The position numbers and the translations under genes are program-made. Positions 4,265-16,608 of a stretch of 16,608 nt of DNA are shown piece by piece. The notes under the pieces were generated by a model. That model had not been told where the DNA came from, searched no databases, and saw only the letters and a list, made by a program, of their open reading frames with translations. Numbering within the stretch: the first letter of the stretch is position 1; the number at the start of each line of letters is the position of its first letter. The stretch spans positions 1 to 16,608 of the forward strand of contig JAWXBZ010000128.1 in assembly GCA_034440375.1 (NCBI GenBank), in the 5' to 3' direction. The stretch comes from Candidatus Eiseniibacteriota bacterium (lineage in GTDB: Bacteria > Eisenbacteria > RBG-16-71-46 > JABDJR01 > JAWXBZ01).

Positions 4265-4273
4265 ATAGTAGCA
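4265..4273 (-). promoter_or_regulatory. Putative extended -10 promoter (TGcTACTAT) for the 72-aa/acyltransferase unit
   Basis: The reverse complement of 4265-4273 is TGCTACTAT, about 70 nt upstream of GTG 4195. It overlaps the start codon of the divergent gene. Confidence 0.4.
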
Positions 4274-4998
4274 TGAGGCGGAGTCCATGGCTGGCCCGAT
4301 TCGCCGGGATCGTGCTCCTGCTCGGATTCGGTTTCGCGGGCCTCGAATTCCTTCGGGGTCGTCGGGGGCCGCTGCCCGCGCCCACCGAGGACTCGAAGGT
4401 GGCCGGAAGGAACATGCTCAACCGGATGCTGGACATGACCGGCGCCCGCTGGACAACGACCGACCCCGTGTCGTTCATCGTCACCCCCATCCGGTTCGGC
4501 CGTCCGGAACCGGATCTGGCCATTCGACTCGATCCGCGGAGCCGAATCCTTTCGGTCCAACCGGGCCCGGGGGCGGGGGAGCCGATCGTCTTCGACCCGG
4601 CGGACGGTTCTCTCAGGCCCGACGGCGACGCGACGCTCCGGACGCTTCTCCCCTCGATCGATTTCTGGGCGATTGCGCCGGGGGTATTCGACGATCCGAA
4701 CGTGATTCTGTGGCGGCTGCCGGACGCGGAGGGGCGCGCCCGGGTGGCGGTCCGCTGGCCCAACGAGGCTGACTGGTTCATTCTCGAGTCGGCGCCCGGG
4801 AGCGATCGCCTGGAATCGCTGGAATTCGTTGATGCGCGTTTCGGCGTGTTCCTTCGCTGGCGGGGATTTTACGATGGACCGCTTCCGGGCGGCGCGGCGC
4901 CGTTGCCCGCGGCCTGGCGATTCCGGGCCGCCTCGCCGGTCCTGGATGCCCTGCTCGGTCGACGCGAGCTGGTGGCACTCCGCTTTCGCCATAATTGA
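4273..4998 (+). CDS. Hypothetical protein with an N-terminal signal/membrane anchor
   Basis: 241 aa with a basic N-terminus and a hydrophobic helix (MRRSPWLARFAGIVLLLGFGFAGLEF). It fills the gap between neighbours. No family recognised. Confidence 0.7.
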   Translation: MRRSPWLARFAGIVLLLGFGFAGLEFLRGRRGPLPAPTEDSKVAGRNMLNRMLDMTGARWTTTDPVSFIVTPIRFGRPEPDLAIRLDPRSRILSVQPGPGAGEPIVFDPADGSLRPDGDATLRTLLPSIDFWAIAPGVFDDPNVILWRLPDAEGRARVAVRWPNEADWFILESAPGSDRLESLEFVDARFGVFLRWRGFYDGPLPGGAAPLPAAWRFRAASPVLDALLGRRELVALRFRHN

Positions 4999-5940: not shown

Positions 5941-6527
5941 TACTCGCGGCCCTTGCGGCCGCGAGGCGCTTTGATGAGATCCCGGCGGCGGTTTGCGAGG
6001 CAGGCCTGGCTGGGGCCACCGGCGCCGCCATCCGGGAAACAGTGGTGTTTCTCGTCCCCTATTGCGGCTGGCCCACGGCACTCAACGCCATGATGGCCGT
6101 GGCGGGCGAGACACCGGATCTGCTGGCGGCACCGGGTGAAAGCCCCCTCGACACCGCCGATCGCGCGCACCGCCGATTGCTCGGCCTCGAAACGGCCCGA
6201 GCGGTCAATGACCAGTTTGATCGCGTGGCGGAACGGATCGCCTCGATCGATCCGGCCCTGGTCGATCATCTCCTGGAGTCGGCGTACGGCTATGTCTATA
6301 ACCGGCCCGGCCTCAATCTCCGCGAACGGGAGCTTCTGGCCGTCGTCCTCCTGGCGATGCAGCGGCACGAGCGCCAATTGCGGTACCACCTGCGCGGGGC
6401 ACAGAACGCCGGAGCCTCCGTGCAGGAAATTGAGGACACCATCAACGCCCTGAGGGATGTCGATTCCGAGGTGTCAGCGTGGGCTCGCGATGTCTGGAAC
6501 GGAATGCGTCGGCGGATCGATTCGTGA
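5922..6527 (+). CDS. Carboxymuconolactone decarboxylase (CMD/AhpD-like) family protein with tandem CMD segments
   Basis: ETVVFLVPYCGWPTALNAM and AYGYVYNRPGLNLRERELL...QLRYHLRGAQNAGAS..EI. The AhpD CxxC motif is absent. Confidence 0.85.
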   Translation: MERRLLILAALAAARRFDEIPAAVCEAGLAGATGAAIRETVVFLVPYCGWPTALNAMMAVAGETPDLLAAPGESPLDTADRAHRRLLGLETARAVNDQFDRVAERIASIDPALVDHLLESAYGYVYNRPGLNLRERELLAVVLLAMQRHERQLRYHLRGAQNAGASVQEIEDTINALRDVDSEVSAWARDVWNGMRRRIDS

Positions 6528-8374
6528 GCGAGATCGCACGGTTGCGGCTTTGCTACCTGATGGCGGCCTTCATGATCGGGCTGCATCTCCTTGCGGCTCG
6601 TGAACGCGGTCCGCAAACCTGGGGATTTCACCATCTGGGGTACTTGCCCTGGCCCTGGGCCCTGTTCTTGGGTGGAGTGGCGTTGCTGCTCGTGCTGCCA
6701 CCGGTGGCCGGCATTCTGGCCGGCCGTCTCGATGGAACGATGGCAAGGCTTGGCGAACCCGGGCAGGCCCGCACCGCTGCCGTCCTCGTCATTGTCATCT
6801 CGGTGGCCTGTTTCTGGTTCGGTCGCGTCCAGGAGTTTTTTCTCTCCGATAGTCGGCTCCTGATCGACGGTATCGACGAGGCGGCCCGACACTTCGCAGC
6901 CGACACGATGGCGATACGGGTGCACGAAATCGTGCATCGCTGGCTGGCCGGTTTCGGATCGGCAACGGCGTCGTTTCGGGCCGTCTCCATGGGATCGGGC
7001 CTCGTCTGGCTGGCCGCCATGCTGGGGACGGTCGGGGCCATGACGCCGGATGGGCGTTCGCGATTCCTTCTTGGTGGCCTGATCGTGACGGCGGGCCTGA
7101 CGAAACTCTTTTACGGCTATCCCGAAACCTCGCCGCTTTTGGCGGCCGCCGTGGCGCTCTTCATCCTGGCCGGAGTCCGCGTCGTTCGAGGCGGTGGCGG
7201 GGAATGGTGGCTGGCCGCCGCGGCCGTCGTGGCCTCGGCCATGCACGTGACCGGCATCCTGGTGCTTCCCGCGGTTTTCGTGGCACTGAAGGCTCGCCTC
7301 GGGATGAGTGCCCGGGCACGCCTCGCGCTGATTGCGGCACCGATCGCCGTTTTCGCCATCTACGCCGCGGTCTGGTTGACGCGCCCTGAATCGACCGGCG
7401 TCAACCCGTACGGATCGTACTGGGAGGAATTCACGCCGCTCGCCGGCCCGCTGCATGCCAAGCAGGCCTACACCTTGTTTTCCTGGCCGCATCTCGTCGA
7501 CATCGTCAACGAGATGATCCTTCTCGGGCCGTTCGTGCTGGCGGGATGGGTGGCGGCGGTGGCGCTGATCCGGCGGAGCGGGCGGAGATTCCTGGTGGAA
7601 CAGCCCGTGGCGGCCTTCCTGGTATCGCTGCTCGTGCCGTTCCTCCTGCTCTCGTTGCTTTTTCACCGGAAGCTCGGGGCGGCCCGCGATTGGGATCTGG
7701 TGGCCACGGTGGCGGTGCCATCCATCCTCCTGTTCGGCTTCTGGCTGGTGGGCGCGGCCGCGCGGGAAGCGGGGGCCCGGCGCACGCAGGTGGGACTCGC
7801 GTTGATCACGGCGTCGCTGCTTCATCTGGCCGGCTGGGTGCTGGTTGATGCCGAGGCCGGCCGATCGCTCCGGCGGTTCGAAACGCTGGCGGACGTCGGC
7901 GCGCCACAATCGCGCTTTGCGCGTTCCTATGCACTGGAAGAAATCGGCACCACGCATATCCGGGCCGGACGCATGCCGGAGGCAACACGGGCCTACGAGC
8001 AGGCCGTGGCCGCCGATCCGGCCAACGCCAAGGCCGCCGCCTCGCTGGGCACCCTTTACGGGAGCGCGGGGCGGACGGAGGAAGCGATGGCACTCTTTCG
8101 CGAGACTGTTCGTCTACGACCGGACCTCGACCTCGGCCATTTCAATCTGGCCAACGCGCTGGCCCGGCGCAATCAATATCCGGAAGCCGAACTCGAGTAC
8201 CGGGAGGCGCTGCGTCTGGAACCAAAAAACGCCATGGCCTGGCTTTACCTCGGGGCCGTCCTTCGTTCGCAGGGACGGTTGGACGAGGCCCGCCGCGCCT
8301 GGCGCGAAGGACTCACGGTGGCGACTCCGGACGTGGCCCGGCGGCTGAACGCCGCTATCGCCGCCCCGAATTAG
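6524..8374 (+). CDS. Polytopic membrane protein with C-terminal TPR repeats (GT-C/TMTC-like architecture)
   Basis: Start set at GTG 6524 (GTGA overlap with the CMD stop). About 12 hydrophobic segments, polar loop motifs LSDS, YGYPE and RDWDL, then about 4 TPRs (A..AYEQAVAADP, EA..LFRETVRLRP, EAELEYREALRLEP, EARRAWREGL). Length 616 aa. Confidence 0.8.
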   Translation: MSEIARLRLCYLMAAFMIGLHLLAARERGPQTWGFHHLGYLPWPWALFLGGVALLLVLPPVAGILAGRLDGTMARLGEPGQARTAAVLVIVISVACFWFGRVQEFFLSDSRLLIDGIDEAARHFAADTMAIRVHEIVHRWLAGFGSATASFRAVSMGSGLVWLAAMLGTVGAMTPDGRSRFLLGGLIVTAGLTKLFYGYPETSPLLAAAVALFILAGVRVVRGGGGEWWLAAAAVVASAMHVTGILVLPAVFVALKARLGMSARARLALIAAPIAVFAIYAAVWLTRPESTGVNPYGSYWEEFTPLAGPLHAKQAYTLFSWPHLVDIVNEMILLGPFVLAGWVAAVALIRRSGRRFLVEQPVAAFLVSLLVPFLLLSLLFHRKLGAARDWDLVATVAVPSILLFGFWLVGAAAREAGARRTQVGLALITASLLHLAGWVLVDAEAGRSLRRFETLADVGAPQSRFARSYALEEIGTTHIRAGRMPEATRAYEQAVAADPANAKAAASLGTLYGSAGRTEEAMALFRETVRLRPDLDLGHFNLANALARRNQYPEAELEYREALRLEPKNAMAWLYLGAVLRSQGRLDEARRAWREGLTVATPDVARRLNAAIAAPN

Positions 8375-10675: not shown

Positions 10676-11845
10676 ATGTATTGGGGCCTCCTCAGCCTGG
10701 CGGGCGCGTATGGACTGCGGATGCTCGGCCTGTACCTGGTTCTGCCTATCCTCTCTCCCTATACGGCCTCGCTTCCCGGCGGAGCGACCTTCTGGGTCGG
10801 AATGGCCGTCGGCTCCTATGGATTTGCCCAGACCGCCTTCCAGGTTCCGTTCGGGGCCATCAGCGATCGTTTCGGCCGCCGCCGCACCATCGTGGCCGGC
10901 CTGGCTCTCTTTGTTCTCGGAAGCCTGGTGGCAGCGCTCGCGACTTCCGCCCCGATGCTGGTGCTGGGCCGGGTGCTGCAGGGTTCGGGAGCCATTTCCT
11001 CGGCCGTCATGGCGCTGGTCGGCGATCTGGCCCCGCCGGAATTTCGACAGCGCGCCATGTCCCTTCTTGGCATCACGATCGGGTTGACGTTCGGCGTCGG
11101 CCTGATTTTCGGCCCGTTGCTGGCGGTTCATCTGTCCGTGCCGGGGCTCTTCTACCTCTGCGCCCTGATGGGCGTGCTATCCGCGGCGGCCGTCCTCATC
11201 TTCGTTCCCAGCGGCCGTGACGGGCCGCATCCGCCACGCGCCACGTTTCGTCAAAACGTCAGTGTGCTCCATGACAGGAGCCTGTTGCGGGTAAACCTGG
11301 CCGTGATGGCCCTTCACCTTGGCCTCACCGCGCTGTTCGTCGTTCTGCCGCTGCAGATCGAAACGCTGATTGCCCGCGAAGCGATGGGACGCGTCCTGGC
11401 CCCGGCCATTGGTATCGGCCTCCTGGTGCTGGCGGCCACGGCTTTTCTGGTCGATCGGTTTCGGGCGGAACGGACGGCGTTGCTCGTCGGGGCCGGCTTG
11501 TTTGTCCTTGGCGCGGTGTTGCTTCGGACGGGATTCGATCGGGTCGGGGGGCTCACCCTGGGCCTCACCGTGGCCGTGGCGGGCATTGCCGTACTGGAGC
11601 CGATCCTTCCCAGCCTGGTAACACTGTACGCCGGCGCCGAAGTACGCGGGCTGGCCTCCGGCACCTACAGCATGTGCCAGTTTTTCGGCGCGGGAGTCGG
11701 CGGGCTGGCCGGGGCCTACTACCTGGCCCGGCAACCGGTGGACATTGTTTACCTGCTCGGGACGCTCGGGCTCGTCATCGCGGCGGCGGCCAGCGGCCTC
11801 CCGCCGCCTCATGGTCCTAAAGGTGGCGCCCGTCGAACCTCATAA
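10676..11845 (+). CDS. MFS transporter, YajR-like
   Basis: LRMLGLYLVLP, YGFAQTAFQVPFGAISDRFGRR (motif A), GRVLQGSGAISS, and about 12 TM segments. Length 389 aa. Confidence 0.92.
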   Translation: MYWGLLSLAGAYGLRMLGLYLVLPILSPYTASLPGGATFWVGMAVGSYGFAQTAFQVPFGAISDRFGRRRTIVAGLALFVLGSLVAALATSAPMLVLGRVLQGSGAISSAVMALVGDLAPPEFRQRAMSLLGITIGLTFGVGLIFGPLLAVHLSVPGLFYLCALMGVLSAAAVLIFVPSGRDGPHPPRATFRQNVSVLHDRSLLRVNLAVMALHLGLTALFVVLPLQIETLIAREAMGRVLAPAIGIGLLVLAATAFLVDRFRAERTALLVGAGLFVLGAVLLRTGFDRVGGLTLGLTVAVAGIAVLEPILPSLVTLYAGAEVRGLASGTYSMCQFFGAGVGGLAGAYYLARQPVDIVYLLGTLGLVIAAAASGLPPPHGPKGGARRTS

Positions 11846-12734
11846 TGACCCGTGGGCCCAGCCAGTCGAACATCAGTCCGGTTGCAAGGCCGGCCAACGC
11901 GTCAACGGCGTAGTGAAATCCGCCGTACACCGTTCCCACCGTCAGGAGCATTACCGGCAGGAACAGGATCCGGTAGGCCGGCTTGTTGTACAGCCGCGCC
12001 ATTCCCAGCACCGTGATGGACGCGGCGATGTGGCTGCTCGGAAAGGCCGAGCCGCGTGAGCTGCCAGCGGCCACGATTGTGTTGGTGAGCTGGGGAAAGA
12101 ACCACCCCTCGAGATCGGGATTCGGCTGGGGGAGTTGCCAGTACGGTCCGGTGACCGGCCAGAAGATGTACCAGAGATAGCAGGAAATATAGGCCGCGCC
12201 GACCACCGACATGCTGATCCGGAACTCCCGGTGGCGCTTCATCAGCCACAGCGGAATGAAGAGCGACGGCAGCATCAGGTAGTAGCAGAAGTAGCCGAAG
12301 TGCACGGCTTCGCCGAACAGCTTCGAGGGGATCATCTGGCGGAGCGTCACCGCGAGCTGCTGCCCGAAAAGGGCTTCCTCCCAACGCATGGCCACCGAAT
12401 CGAAATAGCGGTCGGTGAGGATGCGGTTGAGGAACTGCAGCTCGCCGTACATCAGCGCGACACCCAGGATCGGGTACCACTCGCGGAAGAAGGAAAGCAC
12501 CGGACTCCGGTTGGAAAACCGGACCAGGAGCGGAACGCCGACCAGGTAGACCAGGTGGAAGAGGAACAGGGAGAGCCAGTTTTCCGGCCGGTTGGGATGC
12601 GCAAGCAGCAGCGTGTTCATGGCGAAGTAGGCCATGACGATTTTGTCGATGAGTCGGAATCGTCCCGGGGCCGGGTCGCGCCAGGTGGAATGCGCTGTCA
12701 CGACAGCCACCAAACGATCATGACAGCCAGCCAT
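11817..12734 (-). CDS. PAP2-superfamily membrane protein, Aur1/inositol-phosphorylceramide-synthase-like
   Basis: YIFWPVTGPYW, AFPSSH, GGFHYAVDALAG and multiple TM helices. Start uncertain: ATG 12734, or GTG 12710 or 12701. Last gene of the spt unit. Confidence 0.8.
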   Translation of the reverse strand: MAGCHDRLVAVVTAHSTWRDPAPGRFRLIDKIVMAYFAMNTLLLAHPNRPENWLSLFLFHLVYLVGVPLLVRFSNRSPVLSFFREWYPILGVALMYGELQFLNRILTDRYFDSVAMRWEEALFGQQLAVTLRQMIPSKLFGEAVHFGYFCYYLMLPSLFIPLWLMKRHREFRISMSVVGAAYISCYLWYIFWPVTGPYWQLPQPNPDLEGWFFPQLTNTIVAAGSSRGSAFPSSHIAASITVLGMARLYNKPAYRILFLPVMLLTVGTVYGGFHYAVDALAGLATGLMFDWLGPRVIMRFDGRHL

Positions 12735-13698
12735 TCTCGCGGTACCACCGCGCCGTGTCGGAGAGGCCGGCCGCCAGGCTGAAGCGAGGCGTGAAATCCA
12801 GGCCACGAAAGGCCGGTGTCGCGTCGCATCGCCACGCCGGCGCGACGATTTCAATCACCTTGTCGTTGTTGATCGTCATCGGCCGCCCCGTCGTGTCGTA
12901 GATCAACTGGCCGAGTGATCCACCGATCGCGAGGACCCAGAACGGCACGCTGAGGCGAAGCGGGCGTTTGCCCAGCGCCGTCGCGATGGCGCGCATGATA
13001 TCGCGAAATGGATACAGCCCGCCGTCCGTGATGTACCAGGTGTGACCCGTAACGGGCAACTCGCCGGCCTTGATCAGCGCCTCGGCCAGGTCGGTGACAT
13101 GGAGCATCGGCAGGACCTGGCTTCCATTCCCTGGCAACGGCATGAATCCCCGGTTCACGGTCGAAAAAAGCAGGAACATGTCCTTTTCACGAGGACCGTA
13201 GACGGGCGGCGGGCGAAGTATCAGCCAGGGCTGCTCACCCATTTCCCGGCGGATGATCGTCTCGCCGGCCAGCTTGGTTCGACCATAGCGGGAGATGGGA
13301 TTCGGCGTTTCCTCGCCGGACAGGACGCTCATCCCGGGCGACGGCCCGCCGGCTGCCAGGCTCGACACGTAGACCAGTTTCGGGCGGCTCGGCGCGGCGC
13401 GGACCGCGGCGACTACCGCTTCCGTGCCCCTGGCATTGATCGCGTCATAGTCGGCATCGGAACGAGCCCGAAGCGCCGCCGCCAGATGGTAGACGACCTC
13501 GGCGTCCCGGGCAGCGTCGATCAGCGATTCCGGTGCGGTCAGATCGCCCTTCCGCACCGTGACCTTTGGATGCGTGGCGCGGAGCCCGAGTCGAGCCGGA
13601 TCGCGTACCAGCGCAATGACCTCGTGCCCCCGATCGAGGAGATGATCGACAAGGTGGCTGCCGATGAAGCCGGTGGCCCCGGTGACCAGCGCTTTCAT
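12718..13698 (-). CDS. NAD(P)-dependent epimerase/dehydratase-type extended SDR; putative ceramide (3-keto) reductase, CerR-like
   Basis: Start moved to ATG 13698 (ATGA overlap with the upstream stop). VTGATGFIG, VYHLAA, YVSSLAA, YGRTK (YxxxK), LRPPPVYGP. The reductase role is inferred from context. Length 326 aa. Confidence 0.85.
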   Translation of the reverse strand: MKALVTGATGFIGSHLVDHLLDRGHEVIALVRDPARLGLRATHPKVTVRKGDLTAPESLIDAARDAEVVYHLAAALRARSDADYDAINARGTEAVVAAVRAAPSRPKLVYVSSLAAGGPSPGMSVLSGEETPNPISRYGRTKLAGETIIRREMGEQPWLILRPPPVYGPREKDMFLLFSTVNRGFMPLPGNGSQVLPMLHVTDLAEALIKAGELPVTGHTWYITDGGLYPFRDIMRAIATALGKRPLRLSVPFWVLAIGGSLGQLIYDTTGRPMTINNDKVIEIVAPAWRCDATPAFRGLDFTPRFSLAAGLSDTARWYRENGWLS

Positions 13699-14822
13699 GC
13701 CACCGGTTTCTCGTACAGCCGGTAGGTTCGATAGACGTAGCCGCCCAGGTTGTCCATCGCCGTGCGGATCACCAGGTTGTCCTCCAGGAGCCAGGAGAAC
13801 TCGCCACCGCGGTAACCTTTGTCCTGGCAGACCTTGAACAGGTGGTCGTACATCATCACGTCGATGCCCGACTTCCGGTATTCCGGCAGGAGGCCGAGCG
13901 TGAGCACCCGCACCCATTCGGCCTTGCGCGCATACCAGAGGAGCTTGATCAATCCCAGCGGGAAGAGACGTCCGTTGGCTTTCTGGAGCGCCGGGTAGAC
14001 ATCCGGCAGCGACATCGAAAAACCGATCACCTTCCCGTCCTTTTCGGCGAAGTAGATCAGGTCCGGATCGACCACGGGCCGGAGTTCCTTCGCCATGTGT
14101 TTAATTTCCGGGTCGGTCATCGGCACGAACCCCCAGTTTCGCTCCCAGCTCCGATTGTAGATGCTGCTGATGATGGCAACCTCGGACTCAAACTTTTTCA
14201 TGTTGACGGATCGGATGGTGACATCGGGCGAACGGCGGCGGACGATCTCATTGCCGCGGGCCAGCCGTTCCGGGATCACATTGTGGGGAATGAAATAGGC
14301 CACCAGATCCTTGGCCTTCGTGAAACCGGCCCTCTCGATCAAGCCCGGATAGTAGGTCGGGTTGTAGGTCATCATGACCTTGGGCGTGCCATTCCAGCCA
14401 TCGACGAGCAGCCCCCACTCCTCGTTGCTGCTGAAGTTGGCCGGCCCGCGCATGGATGTCAATCCGCGTTCCGCCAGCCAGCCGGCCGCCATCTCGAACA
14501 GCGCGGCGCTCACTTCGGGGTCATCGATCGACTCGAAAAATCCGAAGAAGCCGACATCCTCGGCATGAAACTTCTGGTGATTCCGATTCCAGATGGCGGT
14601 GATCCGGCCGACATCCCGGCCGCCCTGGACCGCCAGGAATGACTGGACCATCGAGTGGCGATGAAAGGGGTGCCTTGCCGTATCGAACAGCTTCTTGAAT
14701 TCCCCGAGGAGCGGCGGCACCCAGCACGGATCCTTCCCGTAGATGCTCCACGGGAGGCGTGCGAAGCGATTCAGGTCACGCGGCGTGGTGACGGGATGGA
14801 CGGTCAGACTTGGGAAGGGCAT
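13695..14822 (-). CDS. Tandem-GNAT N-acyltransferase; putative bacterial ceramide synthase (bCerS-like)
   Basis: Start moved to ATG 14822, 4 nt after the spt stop. IYGKDPCWVPPL, GRITAI, GFFGFFESIDD, MRGP, GLLVDG, YNPTYY, NWGFVPMT, PEYRKSG, EFSWLLEDN, YRTYRLY match the roughly 375-aa double-GNAT family that includes bCerS. Confidence 0.8.
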   Translation of the reverse strand: MPFPSLTVHPVTTPRDLNRFARLPWSIYGKDPCWVPPLLGEFKKLFDTARHPFHRHSMVQSFLAVQGGRDVGRITAIWNRNHQKFHAEDVGFFGFFESIDDPEVSAALFEMAAGWLAERGLTSMRGPANFSSNEEWGLLVDGWNGTPKVMMTYNPTYYPGLIERAGFTKAKDLVAYFIPHNVIPERLARGNEIVRRRSPDVTIRSVNMKKFESEVAIISSIYNRSWERNWGFVPMTDPEIKHMAKELRPVVDPDLIYFAEKDGKVIGFSMSLPDVYPALQKANGRLFPLGLIKLLWYARKAEWVRVLTLGLLPEYRKSGIDVMMYDHLFKVCQDKGYRGGEFSWLLEDNLVIRTAMDNLGGYVYRTYRLYEKPVA

Positions 14823-14826
14823 CCGA

Positions 14827-16086
14827 TCAGAGGATGCCCACCTTCTTGCCGATGCGACCGAAGGTTTCCAGGACGATGTCGAGCTGCTCGTCCGTGTGCG
14901 TGGCCATGTAGGAGGTGCGGATGCGGCAGGCGTTTTCCGGAACGGCCGGCGGGATGACTGCGTTGGCAAAAATGCCAGCCTCGAAAAGGGACTTCCAGAA
15001 ATTAAAGGTCTTTTCCTTGTCGCCGGTAATGATCGGGATGATCGGCGTTTCGCTGGTGCAGGTGTCGAAGCCGAGATTCTGGAAGCCGGCCAGCATTTTC
15101 CGGGTGATCTGCCAGAGGCGTTCGCGTCGCTCCGGTTCCGATTTCATGATGTTGAGGCAGGTGTGCACCGTGGCCACCGCGTAGGGCGGCAGTGCCGCCG
15201 AGAAGATCATCGGCCGGGCGAAGTGCTTGATGTAGTCGATGACCATGGCATCGCCGGCGATGACGCCGCCGATCGAGGCAAATGACTTGGAAAAGGTTCC
15301 CATCACCAGGTCGATGTCTTTTGTCAGCCCGAAATGAGCGGGCGTGCCGTTTCCCCGGGGGCCCAACACGCCGAGTGAGTGGGCGTCATCACATAGAATG
15401 CGCGCCCCATACTTCCGGGCGATGCGGACGATGTCGGGCAGCGGGGCGATGTCCCCCTCCATGCTGAATACCCCGTCGACGGCGATGAGGCGCCCGCGTT
15501 CGGGCTCGATGCGATTCAACTGGCGCTCGAGATCTTCCATGTCGTTGTGGCGATAACGGAAAACCTTGCCCGGCGACATGAGGCAGCCATCGACGATGGA
15601 GGCATGGTCGAGCTTGTCGATGATGACCGCGTCGTCCTTGGTGACAAGCGTGGCAATGGTGCCCAGATTCGTCAGAAAGCCGGTGGAGAATACCAGCGCC
15701 GCCTCCTGCCCGATGAACTCGGCCAGATCATGCTCGAGGTTCAAGTGCAGATCGAGCGTGCCGTTCAGGAATCGGCTGCCGGTACACCCCGAGCCGTAGT
15801 CCCGGGCGGCCTTCTCGGCTGCCGCGAGGACGCGGGGATCATGGGTCAGGCCGAGATAGTTGTTCGAGCCGATCATGATCCGGTTCTTGCCACCGATGTT
15901 GACCTCGGTGCCGTCGGACCCCTGGATTGGAATGAAATAGGGATAAAAGCCGGAGGCGCGCGCCTCCTGGGCTTTGGTGAAGCCGTGGGCGCGGCGGAAG
16001 ATGTCGGCATACGGGGATGACGAAACGGTGTCGGCGGCCGAGAGAGTCCCCTCGATCGGACCGGCAGCTGGCTTCTGTGGGGTCAC
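14827..16086 (-). CDS. spt: Serine palmitoyltransferase (PLP-dependent alpha-oxoamine synthase)
   Basis: Start set at GTG 16086 (SD GGAG). GFYPYF, MIGSNNYLGL, GSGCTGSRFLNGTLDLH, DHASIVDG, DGVFSMEGD, DDAHSLG, and GTFSKS carrying the PLP lysine. GSRFLNGT and TFSKS favour SPT over BioF/Kbl, and the context supports it. Length 419 aa. Confidence 0.82.
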   Translation of the reverse strand: MTPQKPAAGPIEGTLSAADTVSSSPYADIFRRAHGFTKAQEARASGFYPYFIPIQGSDGTEVNIGGKNRIMIGSNNYLGLTHDPRVLAAAEKAARDYGSGCTGSRFLNGTLDLHLNLEHDLAEFIGQEAALVFSTGFLTNLGTIATLVTKDDAVIIDKLDHASIVDGCLMSPGKVFRYRHNDMEDLERQLNRIEPERGRLIAVDGVFSMEGDIAPLPDIVRIARKYGARILCDDAHSLGVLGPRGNGTPAHFGLTKDIDLVMGTFSKSFASIGGVIAGDAMVIDYIKHFARPMIFSAALPPYAVATVHTCLNIMKSEPERRERLWQITRKMLAGFQNLGFDTCTSETPIIPIITGDKEKTFNFWKSLFEAGIFANAVIPPAVPENACRIRTSYMATHTDEQLDIVLETFGRIGKKVGIL

Positions 16087-16192
16087 TCGATATCTCCAGA
16101 ACGTCGGGAAAACCGGTCGGCGGAGGATGAGCGGCAATACCGGGGCGGCCCGCAGGGCCGTTTTGACCCGTATCAGCCATCCAGAACCGGAA

Positions 16193-16221
16193 ACTATAGG
16201 CAGCAGTGGGGGGGGTGTCAA
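16193..16221 (-). promoter_or_regulatory. Near-consensus sigma70 promoter TTGACA-N17-TATAGT for the spt operon
   Basis: On the minus strand the -35 TTGACA is at 16221-16216, the spacer is exactly 17 nt, and the -10 TATAGT is at 16198-16193. Confidence 0.8.
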
Positions 16222-16338: not shown

Positions 16339-16608
16339 CTATCTGGCCCGGACGATTTTTCGCGATTCGCGGGTCAGCCCGGACTCCACGATCACGAGGT
16401 AGACGCCGCCCGGGGAATTGCGGCCGGCGTCGTCCCGGCCGTTCCACTCGAATTCCATCTCCCCTTCAGTCACGGCGCCGTCATGAAGCGTCCGAATGAC
16501 ACGACCGTGGATGTCACAGATCACCACCAGCGCGCGGCTTGCCCCACCCGAGGGAATGGCCACCCGGACACAGGTATCGTCGGTGAACGGGTTCGGCGCC
16601 GGCGCCGA
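16339..16608 (-). CDS. 3' end (partial) of a secreted protein with an FlgD-Ig / T9SS-like C-terminal domain
   Basis: The frame is open to the window edge: SAPAPNPF....V...I.DIHGRVIRTL...EWNGRDDAGRNSPGGVYLV...RKIV. Confidence 0.88.
   Translation of the reverse strand, partial: SAPAPNPFTDDTCVRVAIPSGGASRALVVICDIHGRVIRTLHDGAVTEGEMEFEWNGRDDAGRNSPGGVYLVIVESGLTRESRKIVRAR

Follow-up and report, generated by a model that had tools for sequence, protein, structure and literature searches.

A predicted four-gene ceramide and head-group operon in Candidatus Eiseniibacteriota with an Aur1-fold PAP2 protein

Four genes on the minus strand of contig JAWXBZ010000128.1, from the Candidatus Eiseniibacteriota assembly GCA_034440375.1, are arranged in the order spt, GNAT, SDR and PAP2 and form a real, conserved unit that very probably joins a ceramide pathway to a head-group transferase. 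The window analysed is the whole contig of 16,608 nucleotides, and its parent genome assembly comprises 3.96 Mb and is 93.7% complete. The three-gene ceramide core is an established, widespread pathway, predicted in 40 phyla (PMC11334938). Since the core is already known, the interest of this 4.3-kb cassette lies in its fourth gene, which defines a subfamily of predicted function that accompanies ceramide genes in different phyla, and in the Bacteroides counterpart of that gene. The ceramide core is highly probable here, a role of the PAP2 protein as ceramide head-group transferase is likely, and the complete four-step route to a phosphosphingolipid, with phosphatidylinositol (PI) as the likely donor, has about an even chance of being correct. 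A preliminary description, made from the letters alone, had read the unit as a ceramide pathway plus a head-group enzyme, and sequence, tree and fold tests now support that reading.

Gene organization and conservation

Open reading frame analysis of the window places all four genes on the minus strand, tightly coupled as first described: a 4-nt gap separates spt from GNAT, the SDR start and the GNAT stop overlap in ATGA, and 16 nt separate the SDR stop from GTG 12701 of PAP2. This GTG is the most likely PAP2 start because it gives the 294-aa length shared by the three closest homologues; the alternative ATG 12734 would give a 17-nt overlap with SDR. The features of the unit are as follows, in window coordinates.

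14827..16086, minus strand: spt, a pyridoxal-phosphate (PLP)-dependent alpha-oxoamine synthase (AOS), predicted serine palmitoyltransferase (SPT); GTG 16086 to TGA 14827, 419 aa
13695..14822, minus strand: bCerS-like GNAT-fold N-acyltransferase; ATG 14822 to TGA 13695, 375 aa
12718..13698, minus strand: CerR-like extended short-chain dehydrogenase/reductase (SDR); ATG 13698 to TGA 12718, 326 aa
11817..12701, minus strand: predicted Aur1-fold PAP2 membrane phosphotransferase; GTG 12701 to TAG 11817, 294 aa
16193..16221, minus strand: sigma-70-type promoter-like site TTGACA-17-TATAGT, 11/12 consensus matches

The originally proposed span of 11817..16221 holds for the placement of the genes, but position 16221 belongs to the -35 box and spt begins at 16086, with GGAGA sitting 6 nt 5' of its GTG. 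An spt start at TTG 16221 was rejected because this in-frame TTG is part of the -35 hexamer and the ribosome-binding site precedes GTG 16086. The single consensus promoter proposed for the unit is retained as a putative site at 16193..16221, which its match quality and position support; the scan, however, returned 2 sites per 5.6 kb against 1.0 in shuffles, a count not above chance.

Conservation was surveyed on the best 80 of 590 confirmed PAP2 loci from GTDB. The exact order spt-GNAT-SDR-PAP2 is kept in 56 of these 80, SDR-spt-GNAT-PAP2 occurs in 3, a partial core in 9 and no core in 12, and a core gene adjoins PAP2 in 68. Because so many loci keep the exact order, the four-gene linkage is far beyond chance, and the synteny survey proposed as a check has found that order in several phyla. 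By title, the loci are mostly Gemmatimonadota, followed by Eisenbacteria, Krumholzibacteriia, KSB1 and one Acidobacteriota; two Poribacteria loci carry PAP2 alone. When GNAT was the query, 20 loci from relatives were considered out of 29 non-self loci, and 19 of them have spt-GNAT-SDR, 15 have PAP2 directly after SDR, and 14 have all four genes. Across a sample of 101 Gemmatimonadota genomes, PAP2 was found in 52 and GNAT in 60; every PAP2 carrier has GNAT (52/52, with 49 pairs within 3 kb), and PAP2 was found in none of the 41 GNAT-negative genomes. Among the 8 GNAT-only genomes, the locus ends just past SDR in two and GNAT is divergent in two. On these counts, roughly half of the sampled Gemmatimonadota (52/101) and much of the class to which the genome belongs are predicted to contain phosphosphingolipids; a literature search found no sphingolipid paper on either group.

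Some cassettes depart from this arrangement. Families f9 and f11 of the same class (L044, L046-L049) have spt-GNAT-SDR without an adjacent PAP2, while a more distant PAP2 homologue is located elsewhere in these genomes, some of which carry extra GNAT paralogues. The plasmid-borne spt-GNAT-SDR cassettes of Streptomyces and Rubrobacter (L170:4766-9292; L171:4701-10293) finish with a condensation-domain or LTA-synthase-family gene instead of PAP2, which suggests that the fourth enzymes are interchangeable.

The ceramide core

The product of spt, a PF00155 protein whose PLP-lysine motif GTFSKS (K267) aligns to that of SPT 8guh, has its best Protein Data Bank (PDB) matches in SPT 8guh/3a2b of the Bacteroidetes type (420 bits), ahead of the Sphingomonas-type SPT 2jg2 (327 bits), of BioF/Kbl entries (at most 285 bits) and of cysteate-C-fatty acyltransferase (237 bits). 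A tree of 24 sequences, whose references take their labels from annotation or gene context and exclude aminolevulinate synthases, groups it with SPT-position proteins of Bacteroidota, Sphingomonas and E. coli, apart from Kbl/BioF, with support of 100/100; the SPT side also holds three AOS proteins from Streptomyces, Rubrobacter and Priestia. The Spt assignment thus withstood both the PDB comparison and the phylogeny against BioF/Kbl that had been suggested for it, and the protein is placed by these comparisons in the Bacteroidetes-type subgroup. The sole other AOS found in the genome, on contig C130, passes Kbl/BioF cut-offs, and the Kbl/BioF roles are therefore covered elsewhere. One member of the wider family, a Priestia megaterium plasmid AOS (L223:4998-6212), is 50% identical to the window Spt and has no GNAT or SDR annotated beside it.

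The unit was described as encoding no acyl carrier protein (ACP) or acyl-CoA ligase, and none is there. This is expected, because the Spt is of the Bacteroidetes type and a specialised AcpR/AasR pair accompanies rhodobacterial SPTs (PMC9386255). A conserved-neighbour survey of 100 related loci, run with six window genes and five AcpR/AasR/Lpt queries, returned no AcpR homologue (0 in 100) and AasR-like matches of 24% identity in 2 of the loci.

The GNAT protein, a single copy in the genome with a weak PF00583 match, aligns over its full length with E. coli YghO (35% identity over 377 columns, E 5e-78), in agreement with its original labelling as bCerS-like. According to the legend of Fig. 9 in PMC9386255, yghO is the orthologue of Caulobacter CC_1154 and lies in a cluster with spt, acpR, epi and aasR, and the E. 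coli locus examined here shows the same cluster. A PDB sequence search with GNAT gave nothing significant (best E 0.088), and neither GNAT nor PAP2 had an NCBIfam match at E<=1.

The SDR, of the extended type, matches PF01370 and conserves TGxxGxxG and Y138/K142. A one-way search with the Sphingomonas CerR-position protein returned the window SDR as the top match of the genome (E 3e-29, the next at 1e-6); identity is 27% to the E. coli epi protein and 30% to the B. finegoldii SDR. Against six reference SDRs, a profile built from 87 SDRs of the operon gives 231-382 bits, with 231-254 bits for the proteins of E. coli, Sphingomonas and B. finegoldii; none of the 17 other SDR-like matches in the genome exceeds 141 bits. 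The reading of this gene as CerR-like is borne out by both the best match of the CerR-position protein and the separation of the profile scores.

The known Spt, bCerS and CerR genes are CC_1162, CC_1154 and CC_1164 in Caulobacter and ECD_02854, yghO ECD_02850 and epi ECD_02852 in E. coli BL21, and the B. fragilis counterparts are cerS BF9343_4218 and cerR BF9343_4240. All three enzyme families are present in the window with full-length matches, but compared with known ceramide loci the unit is compact, lacks AcpR, AasR and LptFG paralogues, and adds a head-group enzyme. The order of the second and third steps is taken from Caulobacter and from B. fragilis mutants: cerS and cerR knockouts of B. 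fragilis accumulate 3-ketodihydrosphingosine (3-KDS) and keto-dihydroceramide (bioRxiv 10.1101/2023.05.23.541633), and the same order is supported in PMC11087976, which places CerR in the periplasm of Caulobacter.

The Aur1-fold PAP2 protein

The fourth protein belongs to PF14378 (PAP2_3), and its closest named homologue, from Ca. Eisenbacteria, is 73% identical. Its AlphaFold model (pLDDT 95.8) has IPC (inositol phosphorylceramide) synthases 9vj4 and 9ivc as the sole Foldseek matches at E<=0.001 (7.8e-5 and 6.5e-4, the next at 0.07). In structural comparison with VIA, fungal Aur1 (9ivc, 9vj4) is the best match, with Z 17.6 over 271 residues and rmsd 4.3, followed by LpxE at 13.1 and SMSr at 11.4. 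Since Z values near 13 are common among helical bundles, the weight of the Aur1 assignment is carried by the margin and by full-length cover: Aur1 aligns with the whole chain, whereas phosphatase folds cover only the C-terminal 160-190 residues. PgpB, LpxE, G6PC1 and SMSr share the catalytic core and triad at Z 11-13 and align with part of the chain. The triad H224, H263 and D267 is invariant across 54 homologues, and its spacing of 39 + 4 residues is identical to that of Aur1 H255/H294/D298, residues reported to be essential (PMC13133130). Structural-alignment identity to Aur1 is 13-19%; phmmer with PAP2 found nothing in the PDB, and neither phmmer nor the family profile matched Aur1 by sequence.

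The C1 motif K-x6-RP and the C3 motif S-R-x5-H of PAP2 phosphatases are basic motifs for phosphate monoesters. The genome's canonical PAP2 (L087) has KPAFHRLRP and SRVYLGVH at these sites, whereas the window family, with 911 representatives at E<=1e-30, has PVxGP and GTVYGGFH, so that the basic C1 motif and the C3 arginine are absent.

The characterised bacterial Aur1 homologue, BT_1522 of B. thetaiotaomicron, makes PI-dihydroceramide and is encoded in an inositol cluster (PMC9246714, PMC8791184). The window protein resembles it in the PAP2_3 family and Aur1-type motifs, and MIPS (myo-inositol-phosphate synthase), PIP (phosphatidylinositol phosphate) synthase and PgpA homologues occur in the genome; but the BT_1522 type has the motifs PAAPPW / AMPSLH / YSSHHY and sits with inositol genes, whereas the window family has PVxGP / AFPSSH / YGGFHY and is linked to ceramide genes. 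BT_1522 was represented by three stand-in PAP2 genes at the equivalent position of PgpA-GtrA-PIPS clusters, on which the window family profile scores 28-30 bits, compared with 141-156 bits on three SDR-linked paralogues from Bacteroidota and Nonomuraea. The BT_1522-type genes form a separate clade on a 2.93-long branch, in a tree with weak deep nodes. Orthology with BT_1522 was rejected on these three stand-ins, given the low scores, the separate long-branch clade and the different neighbourhood. The earlier label of Aur1-like PAP2 consequently stands for fold and triad but not for a head group, which homology to this different subfamily does not set.

Among annotated records, 4 of 5 PAP2 matches are Bacteroidales and Nonomuraea genes; three of these four adjoin an SDR 30-34% identical to that of the window, the remaining one being located at the end of its record. 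In B. finegoldii and Prevotella (L206:5721-7684; L207:4699-6675) a CerR-like SDR is followed by a PAP2 of the same subfamily, and the B. finegoldii context reads rnr-SDR-PAP2-dusB, with PAP2 directly after the SDR. In Nonomuraea (L208:6872-10104), PAP2 converges on a GNAT-SDR pair, and a divergent spt-like gene adjoins, its match split over two frames.

Head-group donor, rival explanations and neighbouring genes

Under the proposed pathway, Spt would condense L-serine with a long-chain acyl thioester, probably acyl-CoA or a housekeeping acyl-ACP, to give 3-ketosphinganine, which GNAT would N-acylate to 3-keto-dihydroceramide and SDR would reduce at the 3-keto group to dihydroceramide. PAP2 would then take the phospho-head group of a glycerophospholipid, releasing diacylglycerol, and attach it to the 1-OH of the ceramide, with a phospho-histidine formed at H263, activated by D267, and with H224 as general acid/base. 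The most likely donor would be PI, and the product inositol phosphoryl-dihydroceramide. Since LpxC is encoded in the genome, the predicted sphingolipids would accompany lipopolysaccharide, not replace it.

Genome content favours an inositol donor because MIPS (above cut-off), a PIP-synthase-like gene and PgpA are present and none of the 41 class genomes yielded Psd; that inositol is the main donor here is evenly poised between likely and unlikely. The PIP-synthase-like gene scores below curated cut-offs (159.9 vs 180; 138 vs 170), and its best PDB matches are PIP synthases. Six Gemmatimonadota genomes are Psd-negative yet bear PAP2, and the genomes G084 and G137, with neither MIPS nor PIP synthase, keep spt, GNAT and SDR without PAP2. 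Phosphatidylethanolamine (PE) was rejected as an unlikely donor here on the absence of Psd from the 41 class genomes, where PE routes other than Psd were not searched, and co-variation with MIPS and PIP synthase was dropped as proof of inositol specificity, as both are near-universal. The genome also has a PgsA/Cls-like CDP-alcohol phosphotransferase, split over two contig ends (C194 end / C81 start) that share 16 nt. A third CDP-alcohol phosphotransferase (L085:171-926), with a weak PIPS-like score of 47.8 bits, might provide a further head group. Across the 41 class genomes and the 101 Gemmatimonadota genomes, the near-universal MIPS and PIP-synthase-like genes often lie side by side, and with Psd absent from the whole class sample, inositol lipids may stand in for PE in these bacteria.

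Several considerations weigh against the pathway as drawn. We infer the reactions of all four enzymes, and the donor, from homology, fold, linkage and donor-pathway content; bCerS and CerR were compared through gene-position orthologues standing in for Caulobacter CCNA_01212 and CCNA_01222; and the top NCBIfam model for Spt, SerpalmtaseCFB, gives 525.7 bits, short of its curated cut-off of 640. The 12 loci without a nearby core gene among the best 80 of 590 include 8 with at least 4.2 kb upstream, and the sampled genomes are related, not independent, so that co-occurrence counts overstate the association. As to the donor, MIPS (37/41 of the class; 93/101 Gemmatimonadota) and PIP synthase (40/41; 98/101) are near-universal in both samples, and their presence is therefore non-discriminating; the two genomes G084 and G137 are small and possibly reduced or incomplete, and in G020, which is 97% complete, the full operon is present without a MIPS match. 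The PAP2 protein, on profile and tree, is not a BT_1522 orthologue and lies outside an inositol cluster, so that inositol specificity is not readable from homology, and the PgsA/Cls-like gene makes phosphatidylglycerol (PG) a possible donor.

A weaker but serious alternative keeps the same core and chemistry and gives PAP2 other or several donors, PG here (yielding ceramide phosphoglycerol, Cer-PG) and PE where available, which would make the SDR-linked subfamily a general ceramide phospho-head-group transferase using the abundant phospholipid of its host. It draws on the Bacteroidota, in which the closest PAP2 homologues come after a CerR-like SDR and not an inositol gene, Prevotella sp. oral taxon 299 carries both an SDR-linked and a BT_1522-type PAP2, and B. 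finegoldii, whose inositol cluster belongs to the alternative HAD type, nevertheless has an SDR-linked PAP2. In four Bacteroides species, ceramide phosphoethanolamine (Cer-PE) is a core lipid and is reported to be more abundant than any other sphingolipid (PMC10056535), and, as reported in 2022 in PMC8791184, an ethanolamine phosphorylceramide (EPC) synthase was not found by BLAST and the BT1522 mutant retains <1% IPC. The genome itself offers the PgsA/Cls-like gene and PgpA. Against this, PE made via Psd is unavailable in the class, the Bacteroidota proteins are only 28-30% identical to the window PAP2 with weak deep nodes between them, and yeast Aur1 is strict for PI (PMC13133130). The Bacteroides SDR-linked PAP2 is a candidate Cer-PE synthase, and the available text of PMC10865984 and PMC11052126 names no such enzyme. 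More broadly, and tentatively, the cerR-linked PAP2 might constitute a family of bacterial Aur1-fold ceramide phospho-head-group transferases in its own right, the second of its kind, spanning Eisenbacteria, Gemmatimonadota, Bacteroidota and Actinomycetota, whose Bacteroidales member would be the Cer-PE or Cer-PG synthase of gut and oral species and whose copy in the Psd-less class would make IPC. A literature search that left out most subscription journals found no paper on the four-gene unit or an SDR-linked PAP2; Eisenbacteria, Krumholzibacteria, Gemmatimonadota and KSB1 are not named in the main text of PMC11334938, whose supplement listing Spt-positive phyla may name them.

It is improbable that PAP2 acts instead as a hydrolase, for instance one that takes the phosphate or head group off ceramide-1-phosphate, a sphingoid phosphate or a phosphosphingolipid. 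The H-H-D triad is common to lipid phosphate phosphatases (PMC13133130), and the only PDB matches of the PAP2 profile are LpxE and PgpB, both weak (E 0.001-0.08), but the whole-chain fold match is Aur1, the protein lacks the basic motifs seen in the canonical PAP2 of the genome, and the unit contains no kinase gene. There is a similarly small chance that an amino acid other than serine enters the ceramide-like lipid built by the first three genes, for example alanine to give a 1-deoxyceramide or cysteate to give a sulfonolipid: the sub-threshold NCBIfam score would allow it, and Spt-like proteins of the wider clade are proposed to take alanine or lysine (PMC11334938), yet SPT outscores cysteate-C-fatty acyltransferase by 420 to 237 bits, and on chemical grounds a 1-deoxy or sulfono backbone would lack the 1-OH needed by the linked Aur1-fold enzyme. 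Least credible by far, and largely refuted, is the reading of the AOS as BioF or Kbl, with no relation among the four adjoining genes. BioF/Kbl models do score about 400 bits on the protein, but this identity was rejected on the 100/100 tree split and the separate Kbl/BioF on C130, and the gene order is kept across several phyla.

Downstream of the operon lies one further annotated gene.

10676..11845, plus strand: convergent major facilitator superfamily (MFS) transporter, PF07690, outside the transcription unit

This gene, which we take by motif to be YajR-like, overlaps the 3' end of PAP2 by 29 nt. An MFS homologue is found near 19 of the 100 related loci (16 distinct), which belong to the same class and to records titled Eisenbacteria or Krumholzibacteriia, with 0 titled Gemmatimonadota; this recurrent neighbour could reflect plain synteny or a lipid flippase. 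Upstream of the promoter, window positions 16339-16608 (minus strand) encode a C-terminal FlgD-Ig/T9SS-like sorting domain in a gene cut by the contig end. Elsewhere on the plus strand, 6479-8374 encodes a 631-aa multi-pass membrane protein with C-terminal TPRs, whose membrane part has no Pfam/NCBIfam family match, 4273-4998 is a 241-aa ORF without a Pfam or NCBIfam match, and about 880-1617 encodes a secreted protein that has a DNRLRE domain and whose short C-terminal tail ends in TWSRIKTLNQ.

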